Source of the DNA: Heterodontus francisci
Lineage: Eukaryota
Assembly (NCBI RefSeq): GCF_036365525.1
Contig: NC_090383.1
Coordinates: 114,206,531-114,270,530, forward strand
Direction: 5' to 3'
DNA length: 64,000 bases
Shown: positions 9,728 to 64,000 of the stretch, piece after piece
How the letters are laid out: each line of letters opens with the position of its first letter
Numbering within the stretch: the first letter of the stretch is position 1
The notes under the pieces: model-generated
The model's input: only the letters and a program-made list of their open reading frames with translations
What the model was told of the DNA's origin: nothing
Database searches by the model: none
Program-made: the position numbers and the translations under genes

Positions 9728-10860
<1,133 letters not shown>

Positions 10861-35300: not shown

Positions 35301-38300
35301 GGTGAAGAGTGTCACCCAAAATGTTAACCCAACTTTTCTTTCAACTGCTGACAACTTTGCTCTGCATTCTCACCCTATTGTTTCCCTCACTCAGGAAGTT
35401 TAGTAATCACTTTAATGATAAACAGATACTTACTATTTTCTGAGAGTAACCCACGAGCTGAACCTTGCTTAGGGCCAAGTTGACTTCCGGCATTGTGTAA
35501 CAACGTTTCCATGTCAAAACCTCCACAGCATCCTTTAGAGGTGCAGGTAAATGCCTGAAAACAGCAGCAGGAGAACACTTTGAGGAATAACAACAATAAG
35601 GAATTCAGGAGAAACTTCTTTACCCAGTGAGTGGTTAGAATGCAGAAATCCTGACTACAGGGAGTAATTGAGGTGAATAGTATAGATGCATTTAAAGGGA
35701 AGCTGGATAAGCAGGGAGAAAGGAATGGAAGGCTATGTTGTGTAGCATAAACACCAGCATGGATCTGGTGGGCCAAATGGCCTGTTTCTATGCTGTAAGC
35801 AATACTTTGTAAGGACTAAGTACACATATGCACGTGTACACTGAATATACTCAGTTTAAACCACTTCTTCCCAGGATTAGAGAGCGAGATGGCCAGTGGG
35901 AAGTGTGGGGACAAGGTAAATAAGTAAAATTGATAGGTAAATTGGCCATTATAAATTGCCCCTAGTGTAGGTAGGTGGTAGGGGAATATAGGGACAGGTG
36001 GGGATGTGGTAGGAATATGGGATTAGTGTAGGATTAGTATAAATGGGTGGTTGATGGTCGGCACAGACTCGGTGGGCTGAAGGGCCTGTTTCAGTGTTGT
36101 ATCTCTAAATAAATAAAAAATAATAATAATAAAAGTAGAAGAACCAAAAACTCCTACAAAGGCTTTGATGCAGGACTGTGAGACTTCAGCTCAGAACAGG
36201 TTGCATAGTCACCCCATAGCTTGAATGATCTTGCGACCAATAACATTTAACATAGTCAATGCAGCCGACAAAAATAAAAAGCAAAGCCAAATTGTTGGAA
36301 ACCAGATAACAGAGAATGCAAAGGAATTAAACAGCCAATGAAATAATTTGGTTGTCAAACATGGCTTCAAACATCTAATCTTGGCCACGATGATGAACTG
36401 AGATGCTGAACAAAGTAAAGACATTCCATACAAATGAGAGGATTCCTGCAGTTAATTCTTCAGCAGCTGAATGTTTTGAATATTTTAGAGGGACACTGGT
36501 AGTGAATTAGGCCATGTCTCTAGTTTTACCATTCTGCGGTGGCTGCAGCATGCAGCAGGAGACACCAATGAGGAAAGAGGCAGAAATAAAAATCCAAGAC
36601 ATTTATGAAGACAGCTTTCAATTGAACAACTTCTTCTAAGTGGGGTGGGGGGGGGGGGGCGCGTTGTAGTGTAATATACATAAGCTGTTGCTGGGTAGAT
36701 GTATATGGACCTTAAGTATCATCACAAGATGTGATGTCACGAGTCTGAACCCCCGTGTTGCTCGGTGTTAATGTAGATGCCTTAGAAATAAGACCCCATA
36801 AATAAACTCCTGTTACTTTGACCCAAAGTCGACTATCCTCATTTAGTATTAACAGCACATTGACCAGTATAGTACAGGGGTAAGAAAATATATGGAGCTG
36901 GAATTAATTGGCCTTCTCAAACTGGATTCAATGCACAGCTTTTACAGCTCACTTTACAGGCCTCAACCTCTCTTTCTGAAGACACTGACACGCTGTGTTA
37001 CAGCTTAGAAAGGTGCCAGCCACTATCTGGTTTTGGCCAAATGATTATTCCACATATCGACGTCTGGGCCATGACTGCTGGATGAGTATTCAATTTCTCA
37101 TCAAATAGCGACCTGGGACAATTTTCCTGTTATATTTACAGTGTTGCTAATGCATGAAATCTTTCCTCCCCTGACCCCACCTGCCAATGTCATACGACAT
37201 AGCAATCTTTTTCTTATTCACTTATGGGATGTGGGCATGGACATCACCAGCAAGGCAAGCATTTATTTCCCATCCCTAAACACCCGAGAAGGTGGTGAGC
37301 TGCCTTCTTGAACTGTTGCAGTCCATGTGGTGTAGGTGCATCCACGGTGCTGCTAGGAAAGGAGTTCCAGGATTTCGACCCAGCAACAGTGAAGGAACGG
37401 CAATATAGTTCCAAGTCAAGATGGTCTGTGACTTGGGGGAGAACTTGCAGGTGTTCTCATCTGCTTGCTACACTTGCCTTTCTAGGTGGTAGAGTTCGCA
37501 GGTTTTGAAGATGCTGTCAAAGATGCCTTGGCGAGTTGCTGCAGTACATCTTGTTGACTGTACACACTGCTGCCACTGTGCGCCAATGTTGTAGGGAGTG
37601 AACGTTAAAGGTGGTGGATGGGGTGCCAATCAGCAGGCTGCTTTGTCCTATATGGTGTTGAGTTTCTCGTGTGTTGTTGGAGCTGCACCCATCCAGGCAA
37701 GTGGAGAGTATTCCATCACACTCCTGACTTGTGCCTTGCAGAGGATGGACAGGCTTTGGGGAGTCAGGAGGTGGGTTACTTGCCATAAAAAACACCCACC
37801 CTCTGACCTGCTCTGAAAGCCACAATATTTATGTGACTGATGCAATTAATCTATATCTCCATTTGAGTTATAGACAGTTACTCAGAATCTAATGGGGCAA
37901 TGCAATATAGATTTCCACAGGCATCTCCTCACAGTAATTTCAGAGCGGTGTTGTTTTGTATCATTGCACCCCCGCCGCCGCCCCCCCCAGGAATTAAAAA
38001 GTTGACAAAAGAACACATGCAATAACAAGTAAAGAGAGAGACTGCAGGATGCTGAGGTACTTGGGTGTCCTTGTACAAGAATCACAAAAAGTCAACATGC
38101 AGGTACAGCAAGTAATTAGGAAGGCAGATGGAATGTTGGCCTTTATTGCAAAGGGAATGGAGCATAAAAGTAGGGACGTCCTGCTGCAACTGTACAGGGC
38201 ATTTGTCAGACTGCACCTAGAGTACTGTGTACAGTTTGGTCACCTTTTTTAAGGAAGGACATATTTGCATTAGAAGCAGTTCAGAGAAGGTTCACTAGGC

Positions 38301-41300
38301 TGCTTTCTGGAATGAGGAGTTTGTCTTATGAAGAAAGGTTGAGCAGGTTAGGCCTATACTCATTGGAGATTAGAAGATTGAAACATATAGGATTCTGAGG
38401 CAGCTTGACAGGATAGATACTGAGAGGATGTTTCCCCTCGTAGGGGTATCTAAAACTATGGGGCACAGTTTCAAATTAAGGAGATGAGGAGGAATTTCTT
38501 CCCTCGGAGGGTCATGAGTATTTGGAATTCTCTTCCCAGCGAGCAGTGGAGGCTGTCATTGAATTTATTCAAGGCCGAGTTACACAGATTTTTGATTGAC
38601 AAGGGAATCATGGGTTATGGGGGGCAGGCAGGAAAGTGGAGTTGAGGCCACAATCAGGTCAGCCATGATCTTAATGAATGACGGAACAGGCTCGAGGGGC
38701 TCAATGGCCTGCTCCTGCTCATGTTATGTAACATAAATGTAAAAAATGTAAATACAGCAAATTTAATATCAGCAAAAAGCTGTTAAAATTCATAGCACTG
38801 GTCACATAGCTCCACAAAACCCTCGGGAAAACCTCGTCAGAAATAAAAAGGGAAAAAAAGATAGAAAATTGTACAGTCTTAGCCAGAAATAGTTCTGCTC
38901 ATCACTGTACCTGAGCATTTCGCGGTTCTTCCAGTAGGTGGCAGACTGTGGCTTTGGCACACGTTCCATAAAGTTCACCAGCTCTTCCATGAGAAGCCTG
39001 TTCCAGAGAACAGGATGGGAGGAAAATATAACAATTGAAATGTCAATTAGAATGGAAATGTACTTAGCTGTATTGTGATACTGCTGCAGCAGGTTCAGGT
39101 AGAAGGACCCATCCCTGTTAGATTTCACCTGACCCGTGTAGCTTTCCAACACTAGTATTTCACTTCAATTTCCCAATATATTACTGGATTACTCTGCAGA
39201 GAGCCAGCATGGACTTGATGGGCTGAATGGCTTCCTCCTATTCCACAGGTCAGTCAGGGATATTCCATTTGGCATGGGATAGCAAAATAAGTGGGAAGAA
39301 GTACAAGCAGAAAAGCATATTCAAGCTAGACGTCAGAAAGGATTACTTAACAGAGAGTGGTTGTGTTTTAGAACAGCTTAACAAGGTTAAGTAGTTCAGC
39401 TCTATTGTTGGTCTTGTAAAGAAATACATTATTTGTTACAACTATTAGCATAGCAGGAGAGCAGAATAGATGGATCCATAATCTTTTTCAGCCTTGAGAT
39501 TTTCTGATGATCAGTGTTATATGGACCATGATATACTTTTAACATTCATTCTTGGGATATGGGCATCGCTGGCAAGGCTGGCATTTATTGCTCATCCCTA
39601 GTTGCCCTCGAGAAGGTGGTGGTGGGCTGCCTTCTTGAACTGCTGCAGTCTGCGTCATGAAAGCATGGCCACAGAGTTGTCAAGCAGGGAGATCCAGGAT
39701 GTTGACCCAGTGCTGATGAAGGAACAGCGATACAAATGTCCAAGTCAGGATGGCATCTGACTTGGAGGGGAATTGTACAGCATAGGAAGTTAGTCTGCCT
39801 TTCGAGCCTGTGCTGGCTCTTTGAAAAGACCTGTCCAGTTAGGCGCACTCCCCAGCTCTTTTCCCATATCCCTGCAAATTTTTTTCTCCTCAACAATATA
39901 TCCAATTCCCTTTTGAAGGCTACTATTGAATCTGCATCCACCACCCTATCAGGCAATGCATTCCAAACCCTAACAGTCATTGCATGAAAAAATGTTGCCT
40001 CAGGTTCTATTGCCAATCACCTTAAATCTGTGCTCTCTGGTTATTCAGCCTTCAGCCACTGGAAACAGTTTCTCTTTATTTATTCTATCAAAATCATTCA
40101 TGATTTTGAACACCACTATCAAATCTCCTCTTGCCTTCTTTGCTCTAAGGAGAACGACGTCACCTTCTATTCAATAACTGTAACTCTCATCCTTGGAATC
40201 ATTCTGCTAAATCTCTTCTGTATCCTCGACAAAGCCTTCACATCCTTCCTAAAGTGTGGTGCCCAGTATTGGATACAATATCCAGTTGGGGTCGAACTAG
40301 TGTTTTATGTAGGTTTAGCACAATATCCTGGCTTTTGTTCTCTATGCCTCTACATAAAGCCCAGGATCCCACAGGCTTTATTAACTACTTTGCCTTGTCA
40401 CCTTCAAAGATGTGTGCAGAACACCCTCAGGTCTCTCTGTTCTTGCACCCTCTTTAAAATTATACAAACTTGGTGGTGGAGGTGGCGTTTCCCATGCACC
40501 ACAGCCTTCAGAGGAAGATCAAGTTGGCCCTTCACAGGTTCTCCCTCGAATAGCTCCTTTGAGAAAGTTACCAGTAGGCAGTACGTGGGTTAGTACTCCA
40601 GCCAGGGTCAACATCATCAGGGGAGGATAGACGCGCAGTGGTTAGCACCGCAGCCTCACAGCTCCAGCGACCCGGGTTCAATTCTGGGTACTGCCTGTGT
40701 GGAGTTTGCAAGTTCTCCCTGTGTCTGCGTGGGTTTCCTCCGGGTGCTCCGGTTTCCTCCCACAGCCAAAAGACTTGCAGGTTGATAGGTAAATTGGCTG
40801 TTATAAATTGCCCCTAGTATAGGTAGGTGGTAGGGAAATATAGGAACAGGTGGGGATGTGGTAGGAATATGGGATTAGTGTAGGATTAGTATAAATGGGT
40901 GGTTGATGGTCGGCACAGCCTCGGTGGGCCGAAGGGCCTGTTTCAGTGTTGTATCTCTAAACTAAACTAAAATAAGGAATGAGAGAGAATAAAATAATTT
41001 TTAAAACACCTCAGAAATGCTTACCTTCCGATCTGCATTGTGGGTTCTGTGGAATATACTGTCCCAGTGAAGCCAGTGTGTTCTGTGATGTACGGCAATG
41101 CCATCATACAGTGATAATTTGATATCAGGATCACATCTACAGTGGAAAGGTCAAGCAACTCTGTCTGCAATGGAGGTTGCAAAGTATTTTTTAGAGGAAT
41201 GCAGCTACAAAGTGAAACAGACTACACTGTAAAGGACAATACTGTTTGCACACTCTGCTTAAAGAGGAAGGAGTATTTAAGGGAAATGCACTCTCCCAAT

Positions 41301-44300
41301 GTCTTTTGCATAAAAATGTTATATTCCTAAAGAAAAACCCCAATAGGGCCCCACCCTCCCATTCCTTTTGCTCTTGGTTACTCTGGTGTCATGAATGGCA
41401 AGGATAAAGCTCACGCTTTTCAGAGCAGCTTCAGTAATTTTCACCACAGTCCCAACATCAGACTGGCCAGATACTGTCCTGCAGCTGTCTAACTGCTATG
41501 AGCAAAAGAAGCAATTAATGAATGGCAGCCTGGAGAAATTGTTACTGCTAGAGAAGCCGGTGTGAATGGGAGTCCACTGCTTTGCTACTGAAGAAACCAG
41601 GATGAATCTAATGCTTCACAAGTGACATCAGACAATCACTCTTTCTCATGTCACCTCACCTACCCAGACACAATGTAATTTTATTTACCTCAGGTAGGCA
41701 GAATTCTGGTACAGAGTCAACAAACACTCGGCCAGCACAATCTTTCAGCTCCTACAGCAGAAACAGCAAATTAGTACTGTTAAAATCATATGTAAGATAT
41801 TACAAGTAAATATTGAATTGGTTATGAATGACTGAGGTAAAAGCTGCGCCATATTCGCAGAGTTTAATCCCCTTCCCACTTTGTGAAGTCAACATGGGAG
41901 CATCCCAAGGTTCCATCCTTAATCTCCTCTTCTGCCTTACCTGCATGCCGTCACTCAGTGGTGTCACCATAGGGACAGAGTCACCCCATGTGCATGCTGC
42001 CAAAACTCTACATTTGCACCTCCCTGCCACTTCCTTTGACTTCACGATAACCATTGTGCTGTCAGACATGATGAGAATCCACAAGAACTGTCTTCCAATG
42101 CATCATTTTTTATCCTGTGTCTCTTGTTAAAAATTCGGAGTACCTGATCGCAACCGGAGTGTTATAGGAACTTAGGAGTAGGCCATTCAGCCCCTCAAGC
42201 CTATTACATTATTCAGTGGGATCATGACTAATCTACATAAAAACATAAGAAATAGGCACAGGAGTAGGCCATTCAGCCCCTCAAGCCTGCCCCGCCATTC
42301 AATAAGATCATGGCTGATCTGTCCCAGGCCGCAACTCCTCTTTCGGGCCTGCTCCGCATAACCCTCGACTCCCCAAGATTTCAAAAAATCTACCTACCTC
42401 CTCCTTAAATACATTTAGTGACCTAGCCTCCACAACTCTCTGAGGTAGAGAATTCCAGAGACTCACCACCCTCTGAGAGAAGAAATTCCTTCGCATCTCA
42501 GTTTTAAATGTGTGCCCCCTTATTTTGTAACTATGTCCCCTAGTTTGAAATTCCCCCACCAGTGGAAACATATTCTCAACATCTATCCTGTCAAGCCCCC
42601 TTAGAATCTTATATGTTTCAATAAGGCCACTTCTCATTCTTCTAACCTCCAATGAATAAAGGCCTAACCTGTTTAGCCATTCTTGATTAGGCAACCCTTT
42701 CATCCCAGGAATCAGCCTAGTGAACCTTTTCTGAACTGCCTCCAATGCTAGTACATGCTTCTTTAAATATGGGGACCAAAACTGTATGCAGTACTCCAGG
42801 TGTGGCCTCACCAACGCCCTGTACATTTGTAACAAGACTTCCCTATTATTAAACTCTAACCCCCTAGCAATAAAGGCCAAAATTCCATTTGCCTTCCTAA
42901 TTACTTGCTGCACCTACATGCTAACTTTTTGTGTTTCATGTACAAGAACACCCAGATCCCTCTGTACTGCAGTATTTTGTAGTCTTTCTCGATCTAAATA
43001 ATAATCCGCCTTTTTATTCTTCCTACCAAAGTGGATGACCTCACACTTTCCCATAGTGAATCCATTCCCATCTGTATCCTAACTCCATTTACCTGCGTGG
43101 CTCCATATCCCTTAACACTCTTACCAAACAGAAAATGTTAGATTTGAAATGATTAATCGAGCTAGTATCTACTGCTTTTTGTGGGAAAGAGTTCCATACT
43201 TTTACCACCCTTTGACCGAATAAGAGTTTCCAAACTTCTCTTGTGAATAGCCTAGTCTGATTTTAAGGTTATGCCCCCTATTTACTCTATTAATTTCTTT
43301 CATAATCCTTAAAACCCCAATCATATCACCCCTTAACCTTCTATATTCCAGGGAATAAAAGGCTAGTTTAGGTAATGCATCCTCATAATTTAACCCTTGG
43401 AGCCCTGGTAACATTAAGCACTCCTTCCAAAGTCAATATATCCTTTCTAAGGTGTAGTGCCCAGAACTATACACAGTACTCCAGATGTGGTCAAAACAGG
43501 ACTTTGTATAACTGTAGCAAACCCCACCCAACCCCCCTCCAACATTTTATATTCTTGCCCTCTAGAAAGCAACAGGTGCATTTCAGGCACTTCCATTGGG
43601 AAGGAGGCAGAATCAAAAATGGAAAGGTGCCTTTATATTGCTGCTGTGTACTTCCTATTGACTGCTTATAGAGAATTTACAGGTGGAAGTGCCAGGCATA
43701 ATCTCCAGGTCTTTCTCTTTAGTGGAAATGATATACATCACTGGAGACACCAGGGAGGGGGAGAGAGAGACACACACACAAATAACTCAACATTTTCTCA
43801 CCCAAATTAAGGAAAAAGAAAAAAAAATTTGTGAATAATTATGATCAGTATTCAGCATGAATTTTCTCACACTTGGAAAGTGCACAGCTCCTACTATACC
43901 TTTTCTAGCATGGTATTTCCATCTTTTGAAATCCAGCCTGGTAGCTTAGAAAGTCTTGGGCTTAGGGAGAAAAACAAACATGGTTTAAAAAAATACCTTT
44001 GTCCCGATCAAAATGTTTTCATTTATATTGTAATGATGCTTAAAGGCCTCTTGATAAAAGCACCATTGGTCAGAGACTGGTACTTGTAATACAGCAGTGA
44101 GGTGACCAGAGTTATACTGCAGAGTGCTGAATCACACTCTGCAAAAGAATTACAGAGCTCTGTGCATGCACCCTTGTAGCCACATGCAAAGGTCTCTTCA
44201 CCAACACCTGAACACTGGTTAAAGTTTAGCATTGACCAGAAACTGAACTGGACCAGCTACATAAATACTGTGGCTACAAGAGCAGGTCAGAGGCTGGGAA

Positions 44301-47300
44301 TTCTGCAGTGAATAACTCACTTCCCAATTACCCAAAGCCTGTCCACCACCTACAAGGCACATGTCAGGAGTGTGATGGAATACTCCCCACTTGCCTAAAT
44401 GAATGCAGCTCCAACAACATTTAAGAAGCTCAACACCATCCAGGACAAAGCTGTCCACTTGATTGGCACCCTATCCACCACCTTCAACATTTACTCCTTC
44501 CACCACCGGTGCACAGTGACAGCAGTGTGTACCATCTACGAGATTCCCTGCAGCAACTCGTCAATTCCTTCGACAGCACCTTCCAAACCTGCGACCTCTA
44601 CCAACTAGAAGGACAAGGGCAGCAGATGCATGGAACGCCACCACCTGCAAGATTTAATTTGCTACATAAGCACTACAATACTACATTAAAAAGTCAAGGA
44701 GGTACTGAAAAGTGCAGACTTCAAGGTGATTTAACTGAGGTATTTAAAGCTATGAAGGTAACAGCCTACATTTGTATGAACAGACTATCTGAATAGGATA
44801 GGTTATGGAAAACAAAGTGTCATCACGTGTATAAGTTATGAAAGCATAGGATTAGGTTAGACATCAAGTGATGGATTTGCTGCAACAATTCAAAATGAAT
44901 CTAGACAAGTTCTTTGCTGTGGTTAATAGCACTATGGATAACAGGTGGGTCTGATGTAGTGTATGGACCTCACAGACACTATGATCTCCTGGAACTTCTT
45001 TTGATCACCTCTGGAAATCAGATAGGAATTCCCCAAAATTTTTATTCCCTGAAATGGTCTAGGATTTGTTAACTTATTCTTGCCTCTCCCAGGAGGTTAT
45101 ATGGCTGTTGGTAGACAAGGCCACTGGAGGGACACGATGCCGAGTTCCATCATGACTGTTTGGGACAAGATCCATGGACCATCCAGTCTTCTCTTATTCA
45201 CGCCTTCGTATGTCCCTCACACGTGAGCACAGACAGTCAGCGTCAGCAGGCTATTTGACTATAGATAGCATTACATCCAAGCCCCAAGCCTAATCCATTC
45301 ATCATTCATGTCCACATAGGAAGAGTTTCCAGATTGGAGGGTGGGGTCACTGGATATTGATTTGAAGAGCTATTAGTGTGAAGGAATCCAGCCATAGAGG
45401 GGTCATAAGGTTAAAAGCATTACTTTTCTATGAACGAGGGTTAAAATCTTTTTTAAAAAGGATTCATCTTCCTAAAAAGGTTTAAAAAAAGTTCATTTCT
45501 ATAATACTAAAAGCCTCAGTGATAAAGCTTGCCTCATTTTAGAACATAAAGGCAGTTTCTGATAAGACGGATCTGCTTATAATGTCACAAACCTCACTAA
45601 ACTGTAAAACATTGATAACATAATTTTGAAATTGTCACAAAAGCGACCATAGTGTAATGGTTGATAAGATGGTTTTATGCTGACAGCCCTAAACCACAGT
45701 CAACTGAATTTTTGACCAAACTAACCAAACCCAAAAACGGAATTATAGTCGCTTGGTAGTACAGGACTTGAGTATTGCTGAAAAAAGAGACAAAGCTTTT
45801 TGTCTCGTACACATCAGGACAGACACAAGAATGCCAAATTTCAAAGGAAGCAACAATTTACATTACATGAGAAAATGGTGGTGATTGGTCAAGGCATTGC
45901 CATGGAGAATGCACCAGGGAACTATTGTCCCCTACGCTTTTGTTTAATTCAAAATAGGCACAAAGCCTGGATATGTTCCTGTTCACTGCAGAGGACAAGT
46001 CCCTGTGTATGAATACACATACAAACATACAAATTAGGAGCAGGAGTAGGCCACTCGGCCCTTTGAGCCTTCTCCGCCATTCAATAAGTTCATGGCTGAA
46101 CTGATCACTCCACATTTCCACCTACCCCAGATAACCTTCCACCCCCTTGCTCATCAAGAATCTATCTACCTCTGCCTTAAAATTATTCAAAGACTCTGCT
46201 TCCACCGCCTTTTCAGGAAGAGAATTCCAAAGACTCACGATCCTCAGAGAAATTCTTTTCCTCATCTCTGTCTTAAATGGGCGGGCGACCCCTTATTTTT
46301 AAAGTGACCCCTAGTTCGAGATTCTTCTACAAGGAGAAACATCCTTGCCACATCCGCCCTGTCAAGACCCCTCAGGATCATATGTTTCAATCAAGTCGCC
46401 TCTTACTCTTCTAAATTCCAGTGGATACAAACCTAGCCTGTCCAATCTTTCCTCGTAAGACAGCCCCCCCCATTCCAGGTATTAGTCTAGTAAACCTTCT
46501 CTGTACTGCCTCCAATGCATCTATATCCTTCCTTAAATAAGGAGACCAGTACTGTACACAGTACTCCAGATGTGGTCTCACCAATGCCCTGTATAACTGA
46601 AGCATAACCTCCCTACTTTTGTATTCAATTCCCCTCACGATAAACAACAATATTCTATTAGCTTTCCTAATTATGTGCTGTACCTGCATACTAACCTTTT
46701 GCGATTCATGCACTAGGACACCCTGATCCCTCTGCATCTCAGAGCTCTGCAATCTCTCACCATTTCGATAATGCTTCTTTTTTCTTCCTGCCAAAGTGGA
46801 CAATTTTACACTTTCCCACATTATACTCCATTTGCCAGGTCTTTGCCCACTCACTTAACCTATCTATATCCCTTTGTAGCCCCCATATGTCCTCTTTGCA
46901 AGTTACTTTCCTACCTATCTTTGTGTCATCAGCAAATGTAGCAATCATACCTTCATTTAAGTAATTTATATAAAGCTTCCAGCAAGTGTGACGGAAATCT
47001 CACATGCCAAATGGAAAATATTAATTTTGTTGCATGGAACTTTGCCTAAGACCTTTACTGGACATTATTACAAATAACTTTAAAAAAAACAGAATGCAGC
47101 CAAAATGGTCACGAATTTGCATGTGAAAAAAAGTGAAGAATCAGCCGAAGACAGAGGTAATTACCCAGTCTAGCCATAATAATAGGGGGGTTCTCTGATT
47201 AAATTACCTAGAATGATTTTGACAAAGTTGATAGTCAAAAGCCATTGACACCCATTGACTTTGAAAGAGCCAAACCCCCACTACCAAGTACGTCTGAATT

Positions 47301-50300
47301 TCAAAAATCCTTCCAGAAGGTGCTGTTTCAAACAAAGAGGTGGTCACTTGACATGACTACCTGTGTAACTCATAGTTTGTGAGTTGTGCCTCAGAAAGCA
47401 GACAGTAGCTGAATTGCAGGGAAGCAACATCTCTCTCTCCCTCTCCAGCAAAGTCCCAGGGAAGCCTTGGCTGCAGCAAAACCTCAAATCTACAGATCCT
47501 CACAGTCAGCAACAAAGAGGACGGATAAAGCCTCTCTTCGACCTTCTGGAATCAGAGAAGCAAACCCAAATTGTGCATGTGGTTCAGCGAGAACTTCAAG
47601 ACTTTAACTTCAACTAAATACACTGGGACCCAGTGACAATGAGACCCAGTATTTAAATCCCATTAAAAAAAAAATTCATTCATGGGCTCTGGGCGTCGCT
47701 GGCCAGGCCAGCATTTATTGCCCATCCCTAATTGCCCTCGCGAAGGTGATGGTGAGCTGCCTTCTTGAACCGCTGCAGTCCATGTGAGGTAGGTACACCC
47801 ACAGTGCTGTTAGGAAGGGAGTTCCAGGATTTTGACCCAGTGACAGTGAAGGAACGGCAATATAGTTCCAAGTCAGGATGGTGTGTGACTTGGAGGAGAA
47901 CTTGCAGGGAATGATGTTCCCATGCATTTGCTGCCCTTGTCCTTCTAGTTGGTACAGGTTGTGGGTTTGGAAGGTGCTGTCTAAGGAGGCTTGGTGAGAT
48001 TCTGCAGTGCATCTTGTAGATGGTACATACTGCTGCCACTGTGCGTCGGTGGTGCAGGGAGTGAATGTTTGAGGATGGGGCACCAATCAAGCGGGCTTCT
48101 TTGTCCTGGATGGTGTCGAGCCTCTTGAGTGTTGTTGGAGCTGCACCCGTCCAGGCAAGTGGAGATTATTCCATCACACTCCTGACTTGTGCCTTGTAGA
48201 TGGTGGACAGGCTTTGGGGAGTCAGGAGGTGAGTTACCCGCCGCAGGATTCCTAGCCTCTGACTTGCTCTTGTAGCCATGGTATTTAAATGGCTACTCCA
48301 GTTCAGTTTCTGGTCAATGGTAGTCCTAGGATGTTGATAGTGGGGGATTCAGCGATGGTAATGCCATTGAATGCCAAGGGGAGATGGTTAGATTTTCTCT
48401 TGTTGGAGATGGTCTTTGCCTGGCACTTGTGTGGCACGAATGTTACTTGCTACTTATCAGCCCAAGCCTGCATATTGTCCAAGTCTTGCTGCATTTCTAC
48501 ACGGACTGCTTCAGTATCTGAGGGGTCGCGAATGGTGCTGAACATTGTGCAATCATCAGCGAACATCCCTACTTCTGACATTATGATTGAAGATGGTTGG
48601 GCCTAAGACACTACCCTGAGGAACTCCTGCAGTGATGTCCTGAAGCTGAGATGATTGACCTCTAACAACTACAACCATCTTCCTTTGCGCTAGGTACGAT
48701 TGCAACCAGCAGAGTTTTCCCCTTGATTCACATTGACTCCAGTTTTGCCAGGGCTCCTTGATGCCTTACTCGGTCAAATGCTGCCTTGATGTCAAGGGCA
48801 GTCACTCTCACCTCAACTCTTTAGTCCACATTTAAACAAGGCTTTAATGAGGTCAGCAGCTGAGTGGCCCTGGCAAAATCCAAACTGAGCAGGTTATTGC
48901 TAATCAAGTGCCGCTTGACAGCACTGTCAATGACACCTTCCATCACTTTACTGTTGATCGAGAGTAGACTGATGGGTTGGATTTGTCCTGCTTTTTGTGT
49001 ACAGGACATACCTGGGCAATTTTCCACATTGCCAGGTAGATGCCAGTGTTGTAGCTGTACTGGAACAGCTCGGCTAGGGGCGCGACAGGTCCTAGAGCAC
49101 AGGTCTTCAGTACTATTGCTGGAATGTTGTCAGGGCCCATAGCCTTTGCAGCATCCAGTGCCTTCAGTCGTTTCTTGATATCATGCAGAGTGAATTGAAT
49201 TGGCTGAAGACTGGCATCTGTGATGCTGGGGACTTCAGGAGGAGGCCGAGATGGGTCATCAACTCGGCACTTCTGGCTGAAGGTTGTTGCAAATGCTTCA
49301 GCCTTATCTTTTGCACTGATGTGCTGGGCTCCCCCATCATTGAGGATGGGGATATTTATGGAGCCACCTCCTCCAGTTAGCTCTTTAATTGTCCACCACC
49401 ATTCACGACTGGATGTGGCAGGACTGCAGAGGTTAGATCTGATCCATTGGTTGTGGGATCGCTTAGCTCTGTCTATTGCATGCTGCTTACGCTGTTTGGC
49501 ACGCAAGTGGTCCTAGGTTGTAGCTTCACCAGCTTGACACCTCATTTTGAGGTATGCTTGGTGCCACTCCTGACATGCCCTCCTGCACTCTTCATTCAAC
49601 CAGGGTTGATCCCCTGGCTTGATGGTAATGGTAGAGCGGGGGATATGCCGGACCATGAGGTTACAGATTTTGGTTGAGTACAATTCTGCTGCTGCTGATG
49701 GTCCACAGCGCCTCATGGATGCCCAGTTTTGCATTGCTGGATCTGTTCGAAATCTATCCCATTTAGCACGGTGGTAGTGCCACACTACACAATGGACTGT
49801 ATCCTCAATGTGAAGACGGGACTTCATCTCCACAAGGACTGTGCGGTGGTCACTCCTACCAATAGTCTCATGAACAGATACATCTGCGGCAGGCAGCTTG
49901 GTGAGGATGAGGTCAAGTATGTTTTTCCTTCTTGTTGGTTCCCTCACCGCCTGCCGCAGACCTAGTCCAGCAGCTACGTCCTTTAGGACTCGGCCAGCTC
50001 GGTCAGTAGTGGTGCTACCGAGCCACTCTTGATGATGGACATTGAAGTCCCCCACCCAGAATACATTCTGTGCCCTTGCCACCCTCAGTCCTTCCTCCAA
50101 GTGGTGTTCAATATGGAGGAGTACTGATTCATCAGCTGAGGCGGGGGGCAGTAGGTGGTAATCAGCAGGAGGTTTCCTTGCCCATCTTTGACCTAATGCC
50201 ATGAGACCTCATAGGGTCTGGAGTCGATATTGAGGACTCCCAGGGCAACTCCCTCCCGATTGTATATCACTGTGCCATCACATCTGCTGGGTCTGTCCTG

Positions 50301-53300
50301 CCAGAGGGACAAGATGTACCCAGGGATGGTGATAGTCATGTCTGGGACATTGTAAGATATGATTTGGTGAGTATGACTATGTCAAGCTGTTGCTTAACTA
50401 GTCTGTGGAACAGCTCTCCCAATTTTGGCATAAGCCCCCAGGGGCTCGTAAGGAGGACTTTGCAGGGTCGACAGGGCTGGGTTTGCTGCTTTCATTTCCG
50501 GCATCTAGGTCAATGCCGGGTGGCCTGTCCGGTTTCATTCCTTATCGACATTTTAGCGGTTAGGTACAATTGAGTGGCTTGCTAGGCCATTTCAGAGGGC
50601 ACGTAAGAGTCAACCACATTGCTGTGAGTCTGGAGTCACGTGTAGGCCAGACCAGGTAAGGACAGCAGATTTCCTTCCCTAAAGGACATTAGTGAACCAG
50701 ATGGGTTTTTACAACAATCGACAATGGTTTCATGGCCATCATTAGACTAGCTTTTGCTTTTAATTCCAGAATTTTTTGTGTTTATTAACTGAATTCAAAT
50801 TCCACCTTCTGCCATGGTGGGATTAGAACCCATGTCCCCAGGGGAATATCTGAGTCTCTGGATTACTAGTCCAGTGACAATACCACTACGCCCCAATAAT
50901 CTGGTTGAAACTCGTCTGGAGGACAGTAATCTCAACTGGTTCCTTTCCTTTAGGGATAATTAGATCACTCCTTCAGACCCATTCAAGTGTCTTTGGGATC
51001 TGTCTTTCTCAATTTAAGTTGAGAGTGACCATCTGAGAAGCAGGGCTGATCCAGGCTAGGATTATAATCCACTACACTGGAAAATTGCAGAGATTTTCCC
51101 TTATTTCTCATGTAGAAATTTCAGGCTATTGTGGACAAGTTTTGATACTCCCTGTAGCCTAAATCAGATTGTTAAATTGTTTCATTTCAGTACTCGATTG
51201 TTTTACAATTGTTAGTCACCACTCCCTCCCGAGTTTATGTGGTTAGCATTCTTCCCGCCTCCCATTTTGTGCTGGTACTTCTTGCCCCTGCACATCCTCA
51301 TTCATGTTACCACTCAAACAACCCCCACTCCCCCACCCCCAGTTCACACTGGCACTCCTTTCACTCCACTGTTCCAAAGGATTGAACTTCTCTGTACACT
51401 GCTAAGCACAGTTCCAGCTCTTGCAAAAATCAGGGGCTTTTTTGCCCACCCAGTACAATCCCACTGGAAAAACAGCAGCAGCATCAGGTAGGAGCAGGAC
51501 AATATTTGTGGCGCGGTGGATTTAGTGGGGAGTACATGAGAGACAGGATTTTCATATATTTTGTGTTTACAAAACACTGCAGCCATGGCCCACAGCTCCA
51601 GCAATCAGCAGTGGGAACACGGGCTGATTTTTGTTAGTTGGAGCCTGGGGTCCCTGATTTTCCACCCTTATCGTTACCCAGTTTAGCTACTGTAATTCAG
51701 AAGAGACTGGGGCTTTAACCTGGGGCGTTTCTAGTATGTACATCACAATTTTACATCAGTTGATGTGTATTTGACAAAATGAATCATCTGTGGAGCCTCT
51801 GTGATTTACAATTTTAAATGTCACCTAGAAATGTTAAGAAATTCAATCAGAGAAGCTTACCTGTGGACAAGTGGCAAAGGCAGGAAGTGGAGGGCTGAGG
51901 TCATATCTAACCCACAGTCCAGCATGATGGTGGTGGACTTGAACTTCAGGATATTGCATGGCAATGTCGGATGACCAGACAAGCAGTACTAAGGGAGGAA
52001 GCAAAAGAACAGGATTTCATTCCTCAAGGAAACATACAAACACATATGAACACAGAGAAGCAGTAATAAGAATAAATATACTTCTCCAATTAAAGGTGAC
52101 CACTTAGCCCATTGGAACTTCCTGAATTAAGTCCCCAATTGGCTGGAGCAACTTGCTGGTTATAATTTATTTTAAAAACCAAATAGATTCCAGCTAGCAG
52201 TGGTATCATTTCCCACACCTGCCTCCCCAAGACATTGAATCTTGCAGGTTATTGATCCAGTCGTTACTCAGTGGGCACCCGGTCACTTGCTTCAGTGGCT
52301 GTTAGACAGCAATCACCAACAACCTGCATTTATATAGGCACTTCACAGAATGGAAGGAAAATAAAATGGATGTCAATTCAAAGGAGGAAATATTAGACGG
52401 GGTGAGCAAAGGCTTGGTCAGGGGTGGGCTTAAAGGAAAAATGAAAGCTGGAGAGAAGCTGTTTACGAAAACTCTCTGCTGGTTGGAGTCATACCTAGCA
52501 CAAAAGAAGATTATTGTGGTTGTTGGAGGTCAATCATCCTAATCCCAGGACATCGCTACAGGAGTTCCTCAAGGTAGTGTCCTAGGCCCAACCACCTTCA
52601 GCTTCATCAATGACCTTCCCTCCATCATAAGGTAAGAAGTGGGGACGTTCACTGATGACTGCACAATGTTCAACCCTGTTCGCGATTCCTCAGATACTGA
52701 AGCAGCCGATGCCCAGATGCAGCCAGACCTGGATAACATCGAGGCTTGGGCTGATAAGTGGCAAGTAACATTCGCGCCACACAAGTGCCAGGCAATGACA
52801 CTCTCAAACAAGAGAGAATCTAACCATCTCCCCTTGATATTCAATGGCATTACCTTTGCTAAATCCCCCACTATCAACACCCTGGGAGTTACCAAGGACC
52901 AGAAACTGAACTGGACCAGCCTCATAAATGCTGAGGCCACAAGAGCAGGTCAGAGGCTAGGAATTCTGTGGCGTGTAACTCACCTCCTATCTCCCCAGTG
53001 CCTGTCCACCATCTACAAGGTACAAGTCAGGAGTGTGATGGAATACTCTCCACTTGCCTGGATGGGTGCAGTTCCAACAACACTCAAGAAGCTTGACACC
53101 ATCCAGGTCAAAGCAGCCCGCTTGCTTCCAAACAGCACCTTCCAAACCTGCGACCTCTACCACCTAGGAGGACAATGGTAGCAGATGCATGGGAACACCA
53201 CCACCTGCAAGTTCCCATCCAAACCACACAGCATCCTGACTTGGAACTACATTGCTGTTCCTTCACTGTTGCTGAGTCAAAATGCTGGAACTCCCTTCCT

Positions 53301-54181
53301 ATCAGTACTGTTGGTGTACCTACACCCCAAGGACTGCAGCGGTTCAAGAAGACCTTCTCAAGAGCAATTGGGGGTGGACAATAAATGCTGGCCTAGTCAG
53401 TGACACCCACATCCCAGGAACGAATAAAAAATGTATTCCAAAGTATGCTCTAGGCAGGGAAAAGCAAGGTCAACAGTGTGGGGAATAGGGTGTCCAAGTC
53501 AACATTTATCTCTACATTACTAAAGCATATTATCTGGTCATTATCACATTGCTGTTTCTGGGATCTTACTGTGCGCAAATTGGGGAACCCGTTTCTTACA
53601 TTGGAACCGTGACTAAACTTTAAAAGTCCTACATTTCCTGTGAAGCACTTTGGAACGTCCTGAGGTCATGAAAGGCGCGGTATAAACTCAAGTCTTTCAT
53701 AACAGCACAGAAGGAGCCCAAATGAAAGTTAACAAAAAGCAGTTGGATACAGTGATGAGGGGGGAGGGGAGGAGGGGGGGGGGGCGATACTTTGGGCCCT
53801 TTTGCATGGATGATTTAGGAGGGCACCTTCCTCATCCTTTTCGGTCTTGTTAAGGGATGAAACTCAAGAAAAAGAGGCCTTTCGGCCCATTGAAGCTAAA
53901 CCCTCCTAGCCGTCTCCCCAGAACATCCAGACGCACATTAGAACCACCGCCAAATAGTCTCTACCTCTACAAATTTGTCCAGATTATTCCACACATTAAT
54001 CGAAGTAAAGTAGCCTCTCTCCTTACAGCTGTGTTAAACTCATATTTCCATGCATGTCCTCTTGCTCCTAGTTGTCTACCTGCACTCACAACCATCCCAC
54101 AATAAGCAGACTTCCTTGAGAATACTCCCCAATCAGATTTAAAATAAAAGAAGTCCGGTTGAAATTCCTCACCAGCTTCAT
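20213..54181 (-). CDS. INTS9: Integrator complex subunit 9, complete gene, 17 coding exons, 658 aa
   Basis: Exons assembled by hand sum to 1977 nt with consistent phases and GT-AG boundaries. The peptide runs [20 protein letters not shown]...[12 protein letters not shown], co-linear with vertebrate INTS9 as I recall it (metallo-beta-lactamase/beta-CASP fold, pseudo-active-site ISNYH). Confidence 0.98.
20955..22765 (+). mobile_element. Two tandem CR1 LINE fragments (RT and 3' end)
   Basis: [15 protein letters not shown] and [15 protein letters not shown]; the homologous segment restarts at ~21975. Confidence 0.9.
23418..23555 (-). CDS. INTS9: INTS9 exon 16
   Basis: [46 protein letters not shown], 138 nt; includes a KKRKR NLS-like motif. 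Confidence 0.96.
23890..24185 (-). mobile_element. DeuSINE-like SINE, partial
   Basis: Family similarity. Confidence 0.7.
24450..24548 (-). CDS. INTS9: INTS9 exon 15
   Basis: [33 protein letters not shown], 99 nt, GTCAGT donor. Confidence 0.95.
24600..24912 (-). mobile_element. DeuSINE-like SINE, partial
   Basis: Family similarity. Confidence 0.7.
25342..25509 (-). CDS. INTS9: INTS9 exon 14
   Basis: [56 protein letters not shown], 168 nt. Confidence 0.97.
25723..26176 (+). mobile_element. tRNA-derived SINE (MetaSINE-like core) with LINE-B tail
   Basis: A/B boxes, core CTGGTTCACTAATG...GAAATCTGCC...GGTCTGGCCTACA...GACTCCAGA, tail shared with LINE-B. The family name is from recall. Confidence 0.8.
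26545..26900 (-). mobile_element. MetaSINE-like SINE with LINE-B tail
   Basis: Same family as 25723-26176. Confidence 0.8.
27053..27177 (-). CDS. INTS9: INTS9 exon 13
   Basis: [41 protein letters not shown], 125 nt. Confidence 0.97.
27442..27613 (-). CDS. INTS9: INTS9 exon 12
   Basis: [57 protein letters not shown](E), 172 nt. Confidence 0.97.
28341..28401 (-). CDS. INTS9: INTS9 exon 11
   Basis: [20 protein letters not shown], 61 nt. Confidence 0.96.
28676..28774. repeat. Inverted repeat, 46-bp arms, 7-nt loop, in INTS9 intron 10
   Basis: Arms 28676-28721 and 28729-28774 are complementary at 41 of 46 positions. Confidence 0.93.
28991..29171 (-). CDS. INTS9: INTS9 exon 10
   Basis: [59 protein letters not shown](W), 181 nt. 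Confidence 0.97.
30703..30814 (-). CDS. INTS9: INTS9 exon 9
   Basis: [37 protein letters not shown](A), 112 nt. Confidence 0.97.
31333..31467 (-). CDS. INTS9: INTS9 exon 8
   Basis: [45 protein letters not shown], 135 nt. Confidence 0.97.
32004..34250 (-). mobile_element. Penelope-like element (Neptune type), disrupted RT + GIY-YIG endonuclease + terminal repeat
   Basis: [25 protein letters not shown] and LPFLD (PLE RT); [23 protein letters not shown] (GIY-YIG with CxxC) at ~32690-32770. Confidence 0.92.
34338..34707 (+). mobile_element. MetaSINE-like SINE with LINE-B tail, full length
   Basis: GGTGGCGTAGCGG A box, GAGTTCAAATC B box, core and tail. Confidence 0.82.
35434..35554 (-). CDS. 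INTS9: INTS9 exon 7
   Basis: [40 protein letters not shown], 121 nt. Confidence 0.95.
35930..36120 (+). mobile_element. HE1/V-SINE-like SINE, 5'-truncated
   Basis: 3' half near-identical to 40631-40972. Confidence 0.8.
37210..37845 (-). mobile_element. LINE family B 3' fragment
   Basis: [19 protein letters not shown] motif and tail. Confidence 0.8.
38035..38730 (+). mobile_element. CR1 LINE 3' fragment
   Basis: [18 protein letters not shown] and CR1 tail. Confidence 0.88.
38911..38997 (-). CDS. INTS9: INTS9 exon 6
   Basis: [28 protein letters not shown](R), 87 nt. Confidence 0.96.
39770..40465 (-). mobile_element. CR1 LINE 3' fragment nested in a LINE-B fragment (~39545-39770 and ~40470-40500)
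   Basis: VRVWNALP...FKRELD; LINE-B sequence is split around it. Confidence 0.75.
40631..40972 (+). mobile_element. HE1/V-SINE-like SINE, near full length
   Basis: GCGCAGTGGTTAGCACC...GGTTCAATTC head, V-like core and (CTAAA)n tail. Confidence 0.88.
41025..41164 (-). CDS. INTS9: INTS9 exon 5
   Basis: [46 protein letters not shown](R), 140 nt. Confidence 0.96.
41689..41751 (-). CDS. INTS9: INTS9 exon 4
   Basis: [21 protein letters not shown], 63 nt. Confidence 0.95.
42165..43520 (-). mobile_element. CR1 LINE fragments (young copy 42235-43060 with a 201-aa open frame; older copy 43080-43520)
   Basis: [16 protein letters not shown]...[17 protein letters not shown]. Confidence 0.9.
43900..43960 (-). 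CDS. INTS9: INTS9 exon 3
   Basis: [20 protein letters not shown], 61 nt, taAG acceptor and GTATAG donor. Confidence 0.93.
44225..44652 (+). mobile_element. LINE family B fragment
   Basis: Homologous to 47700-48330. Confidence 0.8.
46020..46950 (-). mobile_element. CR1 LINE RT and 3' fragment
   Basis: FADDTK and [19 protein letters not shown]. Confidence 0.9.
47675..50893 (-). mobile_element. Near full-length LINE family B (AP endonuclease + RT, disrupted) with a tRNA-SINE head at its 5' end
   Basis: APE motifs (GLMPKLGEL...[22 protein letters not shown]), [11 protein letters not shown] and the family tail; 50572-50893 is a SINE head and body. Confidence 0.85.
51861..51988 (-). CDS. INTS9: INTS9 exon 2
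   Basis: ttAG|[42 protein letters not shown](S)|GTAAG, 128 nt. Confidence 0.96.
52480..53432 (+). mobile_element. LINE family B RT and 3' fragment
   Basis: 180-aa frame FTDD...[17 protein letters not shown]..., family tail. Confidence 0.85.
54173..54181 (-). CDS. INTS9: INTS9 exon 1 coding part (MKL)
   Basis: ATG AAG CTG|GTGAG at the edge of the CpG island. Confidence 0.9.
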
Positions 54182-60094: not shown

Positions 60095-60693
60095 GAGGGT
60101 CAGAGGCTAGGAATCCTGCGGCGAGTAACTCACATCCTGACTCCCCAAAGCCATCTACAAGGCACAAGTCAGGAAGGAGTGTGATGGAATATTCTCCACT
60201 TGCCTGGATGGGTGCAGCTCCAATAACACTCAAGAAGCTCAACACCATCCAGGAAAAAGCAGCTCGCTTGATTGGCACCCCATCTACAAACATTCACTCC
60301 CTCCACCCCCCGATGCACAGTGGCAGCAGTGGGTACCATCTAAAAGATGCACTGCAGCAACGCACCAAGGCTCCTTTGACAGCACCTTCCAAACCCGCGA
60401 CCTCTACCAACTAGAAGGACAAGGGCAGCAAATGCACGGGAACACCACCACCTGTAAGTTCCCCTCCAAGTCACACACCATCCTGACTTGGAACTATATC
60501 GCCGTTCCTTCACTGTCGGTGGGTCAAAATCCTGGAACTCCCTTCCTAACAGCACTGTGGGTGTACCTACCCCACATGGGCTGCAACAGTTCAAGAAGGC
60601 AGCTCACCACCACCTTCTCAAAAGCAATTAGGGATAGGCAATAAATGCTGGCCTGGCCAGCGACGTCTACATCTCATGAATGAATTTTAAAAA
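60095..60693 (+). mobile_element. LINE family B 3' fragment nested in the solo LTR
   Basis: [13 protein letters not shown] motif and tail CCCATGAATGAAT-like. Confidence 0.8.
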
Positions 60694-60744: not shown

Positions 60745-61140
60745 TTTTTTTTATTCTTTCATGGGATGTGGGCGTTGCTGGCCAGGCCAGCATTTATTGC
60801 CCATTCCTAATTGCCCTTGACAACTAAGTGGCTTGCTCAGCCATTTCAGAGGGCAGTTAAGAGTCAACAGATTGCTGTGGATCTGGAATCACATGTAGAC
60901 TAGACCAGGTAAGGATGGCAGATTTCCTTCTCTAAAGGATATTAGTGAACCTGATGGGTTTTTACACCAATTGATAGTTTCACGGCAGCATTTCCATTCA
61001 GACTAGCTTTCAATTCCAGATTTTTATTGCAAATTAAATTCTAGCAGCAGCTATGATGGGATTTGAACCCATGTTCCCAGGGCATTAGCCTGGCCTCTGG
61101 TTTACTAGTTCAGTGATATTCCCACTACGCCACTGTCTCA
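60745..61140 (-). mobile_element. MetaSINE-like SINE nested in the solo LTR
   Basis: Same family; the LTR sequence resumes on both sides when compared with 45377-45750. Confidence 0.8.
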
Positions 61141-64000
61141 CTGTGTTCTGATAAGAAGGATCAGCTTCCAATGTCACAAACCATAACTCTATAAACCTCA
61201 TCACACAGTAAAACATTGATAACAGTTTTGAAAACTCACACAAGCTACCATAGTGTAATAGTTGATGAGATGGTTTTATGCTGACAGCCCTAAACCACAG
61301 TCAAGTGAATTTTTGACCTAACTAACCAAATCCAAAAACTGAATAATAATCTTGAAACACAGTTAGATGAAGAATGACAAATTGACCATCACAACGCATG
61401 CAGACTGGCTTTCTTAGAAATCAAAGAGATTTGGACTTTATCTAGAAATTAAGTTTGTACAACCTTTCTTAGGAATCAAAGAGAGTGTATCTTACCTAGA
61501 AATTAACAGTTATACAACATTATTTGGGAAATAAAGGGGGACAAACTTACTTGCAGTCAAGGTAACACCCCCATACCTAAGAAATTAGTTATGGAACTTG
61601 GAAAACAGAAATATTGTAAGCACATATTGCATTTTTAGATTTGTTGGACACACTCTAACGTCTCTCATGGTAAAGGTACAATTATTGGGATGAGGCGATG
61701 ATACTTCTGTCCCAGTTAAGGGGAGAACTATCTTGCTAACTATATAGTCTACTTGGGGATTTAAGGCAAATGTTCCTTTAATAATTGAAGGATATCATAC
61801 TTAAATGTTTTACTATAACGATATTTAGATTTAAAAATTGGATTCTCTTTTAGAAACAAGATTGTACTTTCTGTCTTTCCCAAAACTATTAACGTTGCAA
61901 TTGACTGTCTCACCAACTGTGAATTGCATGTTCAGTTCTTTGATAAACATTTATATAACTTAGAATTTATATTGTCTCACATAGTCTTCTATATTGCTAA
62001 CTCGTGAATCTGTCTCCGTACACTCTTTGGTAGGGAAGTACATCACTGAGGAGAGATTCCCATACCCTCAAAATATCTGGGTTATTATAATCTGGTTGAA
62101 ACGTGTTGAAGCTATCTGGAGGACAGTAATATTCTCAGCTGGTTCCTTTCCTTTAGGGGGAGTTAGATCAGTCCTTCAGACACATTCAAGTGTCTTTGGG
62201 ATCTATCTTTATCAACCTTAAGTGAGGGTGATCATCTGAGAAGTGTGCCAGATCTGGGATAGCCCCAAAAAGGGGCTAGGATTATAATACACTACAAAGA
62301 GTGGGATAGGAAAACCAAGAGGGCACAGTAGATAGAGAATTAGTAAGAGTGAGGTGGGACCCCTGAGAGGACAGGATTGGCAATTTGCAGATGATCAAAA
62401 ACAGGCGAGCTACCTAATAAATTATTTATTTTGGTCTATAGTAAAGAATTTGTCAGTGGCAGTGAATCCTGAATTGGTTGAGAGCAAGCTGAGTGATATT
62501 ATGAAAGATTTAAAAAAAAAGTAGATGGATTCATTAGGCTGAAGGAAGTGGATTTGGCAAGGCCCAGTGGAATGTATTCTGGTACCCTAAGGGAGGAAAT
62601 TGCAGAGGCCCTCAAAGTGATCTTTGTGTGCTGGAAGACTGGAGAGTTGCCAGTGCTGTACCCATTTTTAAAAAGGGAAACGGTGCTAATCTAAATAATT
62701 ACAGCCCAATTATTTAGGGAAAATCTTAGTGTCTCTAATTAAAGATGAAATTGCCACGCATCTAAATAAAGAGAAAATAGAAGTACTCAGCACAGCTTTC
62801 AAAAGGGATGTTCATGCTTGACAAACCTCGTAGAATACTTGCAGGACATAGCAGACGAGCGGTGGTTGTTGTGTACGTGGACTTTAGGAAATGTTTTGAC
62901 AAGGTGTTGCTTGGGCAATTGTTAGAAAAAAGTTATGGATTTAGGAGGAGGTTAGGAGAATGGATTAAAAATTGGTTAGAAGGGATAAAAAGACCCCTTG
63001 GAAGTGGGTAGTGATGTGCTGCAGTGTTCAGTTCTGGTGCCATTTCTGTTCATTGTGTTTATCAATGGTTGAGATATAGGCCCAGACAGATTGGTGTCGG
63101 AATTTGCAGATGATACCAAAAATAGAAGCTGGAATTAATTCTTCAAAAGACCAAAGGCAGCTGCAAGGGGGATATTGATAAGGTGGAGGAATAGGTTTAA
63201 AAAAAAAAGTGGCAGATGGAATTTAGTGTCACTAAATGTGAGGTGAATACGGTTAAGTAGAGAAAAAGCAGAGAATAATTATATTCTGAATCTACATATG
63301 CTTAGTGCTGCTGAAGTGCAGAGGGATTTTTTGGGGGGATTGGTTCATAGGCTATTAAAGGCAGATAGATAAAATTCTATTCCTTTTTTAATGCAGCTTT
63401 ATCAGTAGGTATAGAATAAAAGCAAAGATGAGCTATTAACAAAAACTCTAAAACCTCAGTTAGAACACTGCTGTATTGGGCTCTAAACTATGGGAAGGAT
63501 ATTGAGGCTTTAGAGAGGGTACAATGCAGATTGAGTAGGATGCTGCTTGTTATGACGAAATGCAAATACAAAAACCAGTTTGAAAAACTGGCGCTTTAAC
63601 AACAGATTACAGGTGATGTGGTAGAAGTGTTTAAAATTATGAAATTTGGGACAGGAAAGATAGAAGCAAACTGTCTGTAGTTGTTGAGAGATCCAGAGCA
63701 AGGGGCCATACATACAATAAATGTAAAAGGTTTAGAACAGACGACCTCTTCACACACATTTTCTGTGGCTGTGGAATTCACTTGCAGGATTAATAGTTGA
63801 GGCAGAAACTGTCAACTTTCAAGAGCAGATTAAATAAATGGATGAAGGAAAATGCGATTAGGACTATTTGCTTGCATGGAGATTAAATACTGACATGACC
63901 TGGTGGGGCCTCTTTATATGTAAGTTATTTAAGTAATTTTAATAATTGGATTTTAAAAAATGTTATTGTTGATGAATTATGCTAGAGACCAGCTTGGAGC

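Follow-up and report, generated by a model that had tools for sequence, protein, structure and literature searches.

Textbook accounts treat long interspersed elements (LINEs) as coding units transcribed by RNA polymerase II (Pol II) and short interspersed elements (SINEs) as noncoding units that RNA polymerase III (Pol III) transcribes, with the tail alone shared between them. The closest described relatives of the element studied here are the Zenon LINEs of the CR1 group, which are known from five elasmobranchs, all lacking a first open reading frame (ORF1) and all ending in poly(A) (Stuart et al. 2026, PMC13343379). The elasmobranch elements (CarCar, RhiTyp, ScyCan, SquAca and HypSab_Zenon) are about 3.2-3.3 kb long and carry one ORF encoding an AP-endonuclease (APE) and a reverse transcriptase (RT). 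We analyzed a stretch of 64,000 nt from Heterodontus francisci (contig NC_090383.1, positions 114,206,531 to 114,270,530, assembly GCF_036365525.1; hereafter the window). At 47675-50892 it holds a decayed member of this family that does not differ from it in architecture. The element opens with a tRNA-like head of SINE type, which forms the 5' end throughout the elasmobranch Zenon family. The single-ORF, SINE-headed architecture is established; how it is expressed is a matter of more graded claims.

The tRNA-like 5' end of elasmobranch Zenon

The element and its parts, all on the minus strand, are as follows.

47675-50892: decayed, near full-length elasmobranch Zenon LINE of 3218 nt, its 5' 400 nt colinear by eye with published consensuses
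50800-50892: tRNA-like head, from the box scan, Rfam and consensus comparison
50571-50799: body, the remainder of the 5' untranslated region (UTR), about 230 nt, common to the short copies
50462-50570: junction spacer, an A-rich tract of variable length and then, in frame with the endonuclease, an N-terminal extension rich in Arg
From 50538, in the spacer: out-of-frame ATG ORF of 46 codons, overlapping the Arg-rich extension
49837-50461: AP-endonuclease domain, frameshifted in this copy (PF14529/PF03372; whale-shark gene models align across it)
47728-49836: linker, broken RT and C-terminal region up to the stop codon (47728), mapped by tblastn with P0003/5/6/7
47675-47727: 3' UTR stem-loop with AATAAA (47719-47714), 53 nt, common to the short copies
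47665-47674: T10 tract replacing the A tail, terminator-like and specific to this copy

An A-box-like motif, GGCGTAGTGG, lies at about 50892-50883, and a B-box-like motif, GGTTCTAATCC, at 50830-50820, 63 nt from start to start. The body's last letters, CCTAGCAAGCCACTCA, reach 50571, and the endonuclease frame (KVLLT) opens 110 nt past the body end, at 50461, with a match to PF14529 (E 4.8e-11, Pfam). The relatives used for tblastn mapping, P0003/5/6/7, are full-length and carry PF00078. Upstream of the endonuclease there are 431 nt, in which the longest ATG frame is 46 codons, so there is no room for ORF1. An earlier note on this DNA, made from the letters alone, had placed the two boxes, the body end, the endonuclease frame about 110 nt further on, the RT and the 3' tail on the minus strand where we find them. 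It had also seen no space for ORF1 and no SINE tail at the junction, where we likewise find no Zenon-type tail. The copy is dead, with several frameshifts and 5 in-frame stops in 832 codons, and it falls a few bases short of the published consensuses at its 5' end. Beyond that end, a repeat (copies 78-83% identical, at 50896-51076 and 62087-62296) stops at the element's 5' edge and is not resumed on its 3' flank.

The junction between head, body and ORF is found across the family. Table S2 of PMC13343379 lists ten Zenon consensuses, which by their row codes come from sharks and a ray (7), hagfish (2) and coelacanth (1), and we compared the first 400 nt of each by eye. All seven elasmobranch consensuses, representing five species codes and including a ray, open with the A box, the B box, the body and the same junction, the B box being one base short in one of them. 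Head, body and junction are absent from all three hagfish and coelacanth consensuses. Against CarCar_Zenon-1, a 39-nt stretch from the A box of the window copy is identical, and a 75-nt stretch of the body has one mismatch. Published consensus lengths run from 2886 to 3314 nt, compared with 3218 nt in the window. Since the published shark and ray consensuses carry this junction too, it belongs to the whole family rather than to one place, and the element in the window is just one ordinary copy of a family already known. Long copies number hundreds to thousands, a few of them with intact ORFs (3/612, 1/1419 and 1/294; PMC13343379 Table S3). The consensuses of SquAca_Zenon-2 and -3 are shorter (2886 and 3096 nt), with deletions near the junction; with 396 and 294 copies, these long deletion derivatives were amplified too.

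Protein evidence agrees with this picture. A phmmer search with the junction frame gave 8 matches and a profile search 14. P0033, a tandem-repeat match at 29% identity, was set aside, which left 16 different proteins for mapping on the element. Four of these cross from body to spacer without a skip (three of them whale-shark models, the fourth an ORF from an ENA contig of 633 nt), and two further whale-shark models join body to endonuclease with a skip. Seven begin in the spacer or endonuclease, three run from body to tail, and none of the 16 has an alternative upstream sequence. One protein, P0029, shares the out-of-frame ATG frame of the junction, although a protein search in that frame had given no candidate, a false negative. 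The search for long relatives returned 24 long matches, none of them a full-length shark protein. It gave four partial matches in shark-type gene models and distant full-length elements at 23-34%, and the ESM Atlas held hypothetical and endonuclease clusters only. Over the protein searches as a whole, partial matches fall on Heterodontus, Pristiophorus and whale-shark models, which makes the window shark-like. The earlier note had named a junction unique to this locus, or full-length members with another 5' UTR and ORF1, as findings that would speak against it; seven consensuses share the junction instead, and six proteins connect the body with the spacer or the endonuclease.

Good support for membership in elasmobranch Zenon comes from the element's 5' sequence, its size and its structure, rather than from a tree. 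The element has a single ORF with APE and RT domains and no ORF1, its family has a poly(A) tail, and its 5' end matches the consensuses by eye. An RT tree built without labeled references sets it apart from the window's CR1-like copy and leaves its own placement unsettled. Relatives of the element share only 25-29% protein identity with the CR1-like fragment at 42.4-43.0 kb. A canonical CR1/HER1 element, recognized by an esterase ORF1 or by grouping with CR1 that bear ORF1, does not fit, given the missing ORF1, this low identity and the separation in the tree.

The earlier note had treated the missing ORF1 as unexpected and the element as possibly undescribed. The observation holds, but it is no surprise, since Zenon elements of all phyla surveyed lack ORF1 and carry poly(A) (PMC13343379). 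The family, too, was catalogued in 2026; the tRNA-like head passes without remark there. Neither the main text of PMC13343379 nor its preprint uses "tRNA", "polymerase III" or "promoter", and "tRNA" is likewise missing from the readable part of the supplement. Our literature search, which mostly did not extend to subscription papers and did not cover Repbase or Dfam, yielded no paper on a Pol III head of a shark LINE, and a DNA-motif search across paper texts found nothing. As far as searched, then, the tRNA-like 5' head is new, and the Zenon family and its missing ORF1 were already known.

The head bears only a weak structural likeness to tRNA. Rfam scores it at 14.5 bits as tRNA, against a gathering score of 29, and a consensus fold of the heads has no cloverleaf and no acceptor stem, with compensatory change in 2/20 pairs. 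The fold of body and spacer shows no special structure (z -0.37). The boxes are better kept: a strict scan for A-box/B-box pairs picks out 5 heads in the window (the element, two of its short relatives and two copies of another SINE), where a shuffled window gives 0.16, and box spacing is 63-64 nt in 4/4 complete heads of the family. A loose scan did not discriminate (26 per shuffle). What is kept in the head is thus a putative promoter, recognized by its box motifs, and not a structure. The anticodon-like arm (head 50830-50880) looks duplicated, most clearly in the dogfish (SquAca) consensuses, which would account for a spacing of 63-64 nt compared with 44 nt in the window's other SINE family. 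Among family heads, ARAGORN calls a tRNA only in the sister head at 34340-34431, a false tRNA gene that is the head of a short copy; a further call lies at 51367-51459.

Short derivatives and 3' ends

Other copies of the family in the window, four short copies and seven pieces of LINE truncated at the 5' end, are listed below, with identity to the element for the LINE copies.

25731-26176, plus strand: short derivative, 5' part to element position 50554, rejoining at 47811, with a second deletion
26562-26882, minus strand: 5'-truncated short (SINE-like) copy, 5' part to 50568
34347-34708, plus strand: short (SINE-like) copy, 5' part to 50578
60753-61132, minus strand: short (SINE-like) copy, 5' part to 50566
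13806-15454, minus strand: 5'-truncated LINE copy in two pieces (14540-15454 and 13806-14116), 82-85%
37250-37831, minus strand: 5'-truncated LINE copy, 84%
39541-39772, minus strand: 5'-truncated LINE copy, 82%
44227-44651, plus strand: LINE fragment, 84%
52467-53428, plus strand: 5'-truncated LINE copy, 86%
60099-60688, plus strand: 5'-truncated LINE copy, 91%

In the four short copies, head and body (82-92% identical to those of the element) are fused to the last 60-140 nt of the LINE, with differing breakpoints. They fit the definition of a tRNA-derived SINE, which is shorter than 700 bp, has a tRNA-like head and a LINE-like tail and is noncoding (PMC3531059): each is of that size, with an A/B-box head, a LINE-like tail and no coding capacity. 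Both ends also come from the same LINE with varying breakpoints, the mark of a short internally deleted element (SIDE). This is clear for 25731-26176, which keeps 17 nt of the spacer and rejoins at 47811 and so is an internal deletion of the headed LINE. The other three are compatible with the same origin and could be further internal deletions or an older SINE. The polarity in the earlier note, a SINE head joined to a LINE, is therefore probably partly reversed, with at least one "SINE" derived from the LINE. In the LINE copy at 13806-15454, about 420 nt (14117-14539) separate two collinear pieces that overlap by 8 nt in element coordinates, probably a later insertion.

Long and short copies share the 3' stem-loop, which, by analogy with other CR1-group pairs, is likely the RT recognition site. 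Among ten family 3' ends, AATAAA is present in eight and an A tail in eight; the other two end in T10-AA (the copy at 47675-50892) and in an A/C-rich run. The T stretch ahead of the A tail varies from 0 to 10 nt.

Proposed Pol III transcription and its alternatives

The reading we favor, with some reserve, is that of a LINE with a single ORF, autonomous and transcribed by Pol III thanks to a SINE head that it captured, a proposal in which the use of Pol III and the route of translation are inferred. In the common ancestor of sharks and rays, Zenon would have gained a tRNA-derived SINE head and body as its entire 5' UTR. TFIIIC would bind the A and B boxes inside the element, with Pol III transcribing the full 3.2 kb; selection would purge T4 and TVTTT terminators from the element, and transcription would stop at a T stretch at or just beyond its 3' end. 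AAUAAA-dependent polyadenylation may follow, as in mammalian T+ SINEs. If RT recognizes the 3' stem-loop and copies are inserted by target-primed reverse transcription, every full-length copy would carry its own promoter. Internal deletions running from where the body stops to where the ORF stops would then leave units of head, body and tail that resemble ordinary SINEs. Protein synthesis, the weakest step, might use a non-AUG start, a frameshift from the short overlapping ORF or Pol II read-through in host genes. In its complete form we offer the proposal more tentatively, with rather more doubt than belief: the 3.2-kb RNA of an autonomous, coding elasmobranch Zenon would be a Pol III product that is polyadenylated and then translated with neither cap nor standard AUG, and the element would have lasted across sharks and rays as thousands of long copies, giving rise to SINEs again and again through simple internal deletion. 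Of the earlier note's proposal of an autonomous SINE-headed retrotransposon, the headed single-ORF unit and its amplification stand, and autonomy is something we infer.

The shortest working Pol III terminators are TTTT and TVTTT (PMC8466645), and if Pol III reads the whole element its sense strand should be free of them. Observed against expected from base composition, that strand has 10 TTT (32.0), 1 TTTT (6.9) and 1 TVTTT (5.4), with AAA, CCC and GGG at expectation. Nine other LINE-like fragments of the window, summed by hand, have 104 TTT (105), 26 TTTT (28) and 22 TVTTT (21). When synonymous codons were permuted, runs of three or more T numbered 7 in the element against 14.2 expected (P 0.002), compared with 26 against 26 in CR1-like copies. 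In 8.6 kb of family sequence there are 3 runs of four or more T (T4+), each specific to one copy, and by eye the first 400 nt of the 7 published elasmobranch heads contain no T4. The fragments used as controls, which we take from their motifs to be RTE-, L2-, CR1- and Penelope-like, include the following.

3931-4665, 16015-16494, 20966-22402, 33147-34370, 42308-43013 and 46411-46987: control fragments, used for composition only

Several observations weigh against transcription by Pol III. Under the codon null, T4+ runs alone are not significantly scarce in the element (1 against 2.8, P 0.19), and the CR1-like controls show a T4+ deficit too (4 against 7.8, P 0.03). In dinucleotide shuffles the controls are also low in T4+ (16 against 23.8, P 0.017), and T4 is absent from two of the nine. 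These controls are other LINE-like fragments of the window and not head-less Zenon ORFs, the right control, and the family copies are not independent, one copy alone representing the middle 1.6 kb. Taken together, terminator words are specifically scarce on the sense strand, but T4+ by itself falls short of significance. Four or more T occur in only 2 of the 10 tails, with T2 and TGTT in 2 more. Poly(A) is present in all Zenon, headed or head-less (PMC13343379), the accepted view makes LINEs products of Pol II and expects elements transcribed by Pol III to be short (PMC10886601), and an uncapped RNA of 3.2 kb would need to be translated. In the protein searches the queries contained body sequence, so matches with the body were favored.

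Translation poses its own questions. A conserved ATG follows the A-rich tract but is shifted by one base from the endonuclease frame, and ahead of the endonuclease there is no conserved in-frame AUG. The Arg-rich extension of the endonuclease frame resembles distant relatives. With the ATG out of frame, initiation would be non-standard, or the protein would come from Pol II read-through copies. We also considered an ORF start at an ATG inside the body, which is ruled out: distances across the A-rich tract are 28, 28, 28, 24, 27 and 20 nt in the six consensuses where they could be counted (by eye; the seventh could not) and 25 in the window copy, so the frame is not conserved and the body is UTR. 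The tract itself may be a leftover of the captured SINE's own tail.

The main rival to Pol III is Pol II. The same architecture could yield a full-length Pol II RNA, with the SINE head a Pol II promoter or a passenger, Pol III confined to the short derivatives and the scarcity of T runs a property of Zenon's coding sequence. We regard this as unlikely, yet as an explanation to be taken seriously: all characterized LINEs are treated as Pol II units (PMC10886601), AATAAA and a poly(A) found in Zenon of all phyla (PMC13343379) fit it, the T4 test is not significant, and a capped mRNA removes the translation problem. It does not lead us to expect, however, that the long consensuses themselves would retain the A and B boxes in sharks and a ray alike, or that the deficit would be confined to T runs and TAT/TCT words, spread through the ORF and missing at the TTT level from other LINE fragments of the window. 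A tRNA-like head could instead be a processing signal of RNase P type that trims a precise 5' end from host read-through transcripts, like the ribozymes in R2/RTE. All long consensuses do start a few bases before the A box, and 5' processing elements are frequent in single-ORF LINEs (PMC5786205). This seems improbable to us given a fold with neither acceptor stem nor cloverleaf, compensation in so few pairs and an Rfam score half of the cut-off, and it leaves the T-run deficit unexplained.

Two further explanations concern the junction itself. The headed form might be a chimera, long but non-autonomous, that was amplified in trans, with a different 5' end on the true master having been missed or overwritten by an abundant SINE during consensus building. 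Automatic extension from RT seeds produced the published consensuses (PMC13343379), nearly all copies have broken ORFs (0/2313, 0/59 and 0/396 intact), and a full-length shark protein is missing among the long matches. We give this little credence, because the junction is the same, with no other 5' end, in each of the seven consensuses, in gene models of the whale shark and in an ORF from ENA, the endonuclease frame is intact at its start directly after the spacer, and a few intact ORFs do exist. That a SINE came by chance to lie beside a 5'-truncated LINE, or that a deletion affected this locus alone, is already refuted. Neighbors of this kind are common, since SINE-like and LINE copies make up 13.7% of the window, and a search for a target-site duplication at the element found none; but published consensuses of five species and independent proteins show the same junction, and a second window copy, at 25731-26176, carries the first 17 nt of it.

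Transcription by Pol III, if correct, would make the family a natural setting in which to test whether long RNAs from Pol III are translated and whether the supposed length limit of Pol III holds. A successful vertebrate LINE with a SINE head as its 5' end breaks the textbook split, and suggests a route of SINE birth by deletion of a headed LINE instead of by capture of a head. For annotation of shark repeats, the SINE and LINE of this family cross-mask each other and give false tRNA calls.

Neighboring features and comparison with known systems

A second, younger family of tRNA-derived SINEs and one coding exon also lie in the window.

11447-11789 (minus), 40633-40972 (plus), 1803-2096 (minus) and 35930-36123 (plus): copies of the second SINE family
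9725-10492, minus strand: first coding exon of a gene with SH3 and kinase domains (by Pfam), in a GC-rich island
About 8370-9600: 32-nt minisatellite, just downstream of that exon

Two copies of the second SINE family are 97.7% identical; the family ends in (CTAAA)n and is unrelated to the Zenon element, with no BLAST match between them. We take this family to resemble HE1/V-SINE, and the gene to be presumably a mixed-lineage kinase, MAP3K9/10/11-like. The Zenon element is not itself a member of HE1/V-SINE, which is defined by a V domain and an HER1 tail. SacSINE1/Deu-SINE combines a Deu domain with an L2-2 tail, and the tail of the window family is of Zenon type. SINE pieces at BovB ends, a possible precedent, were not confirmed in the accessible part of PMC6036668.

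Among Pol III-dependent retroelements, TRIMp3 (Cassandra, Helenus and Ajax) have adopted a small-RNA Pol III promoter; unlike elasmobranch Zenon, they are non-autonomous long terminal repeat elements of 311-1263 bp without an ORF (PMC10886601). Mammalian T+ SINEs (B2, Dip, Ves) resemble the window family in their Pol III-type head, AATAAA, variable T stretch and A tail. They are, however, short, noncoding and reported in mammals only (PMC8466645), and the window family has a full terminator in only 2/10 tails. Bipartite SINEs of RTE and Vingi (Bov-tA, AfroSINE and others; Kojima 2018, PMC5786205) join a tRNA head to 5' and 3' parts of a LINE, as the short copies here do. In those, the head was added to a deleted LINE while the autonomous LINE is head-less, and the sources listed are only RTE, Ingi, Vingi and R2. 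The bivalve HCD SINEs (PMC11481361) and ZenoSINE (PMC6685494) are, like the window's short copies, tRNA-derived short elements with a Zenon 3' end. They are described as sharing with Zenon only the tail (35-61 bp in bivalves), whereas the elasmobranch Zenon LINE itself bears the head and body. Closest in the mode of origin is Persaeus, a SIDE of lepidopteran Zenon (Wang et al. 2019, PMC6740152), whose short forms arose by repeated internal deletion joining a 5' part to the ORF end, 3' UTR and poly(A), as in the window. Persaeus is stated to have neither tRNA homology nor a Pol III promoter. In the window family, by contrast, the 5' part is a tRNA-like head, and its deletion derivative consequently looks like a SINE.

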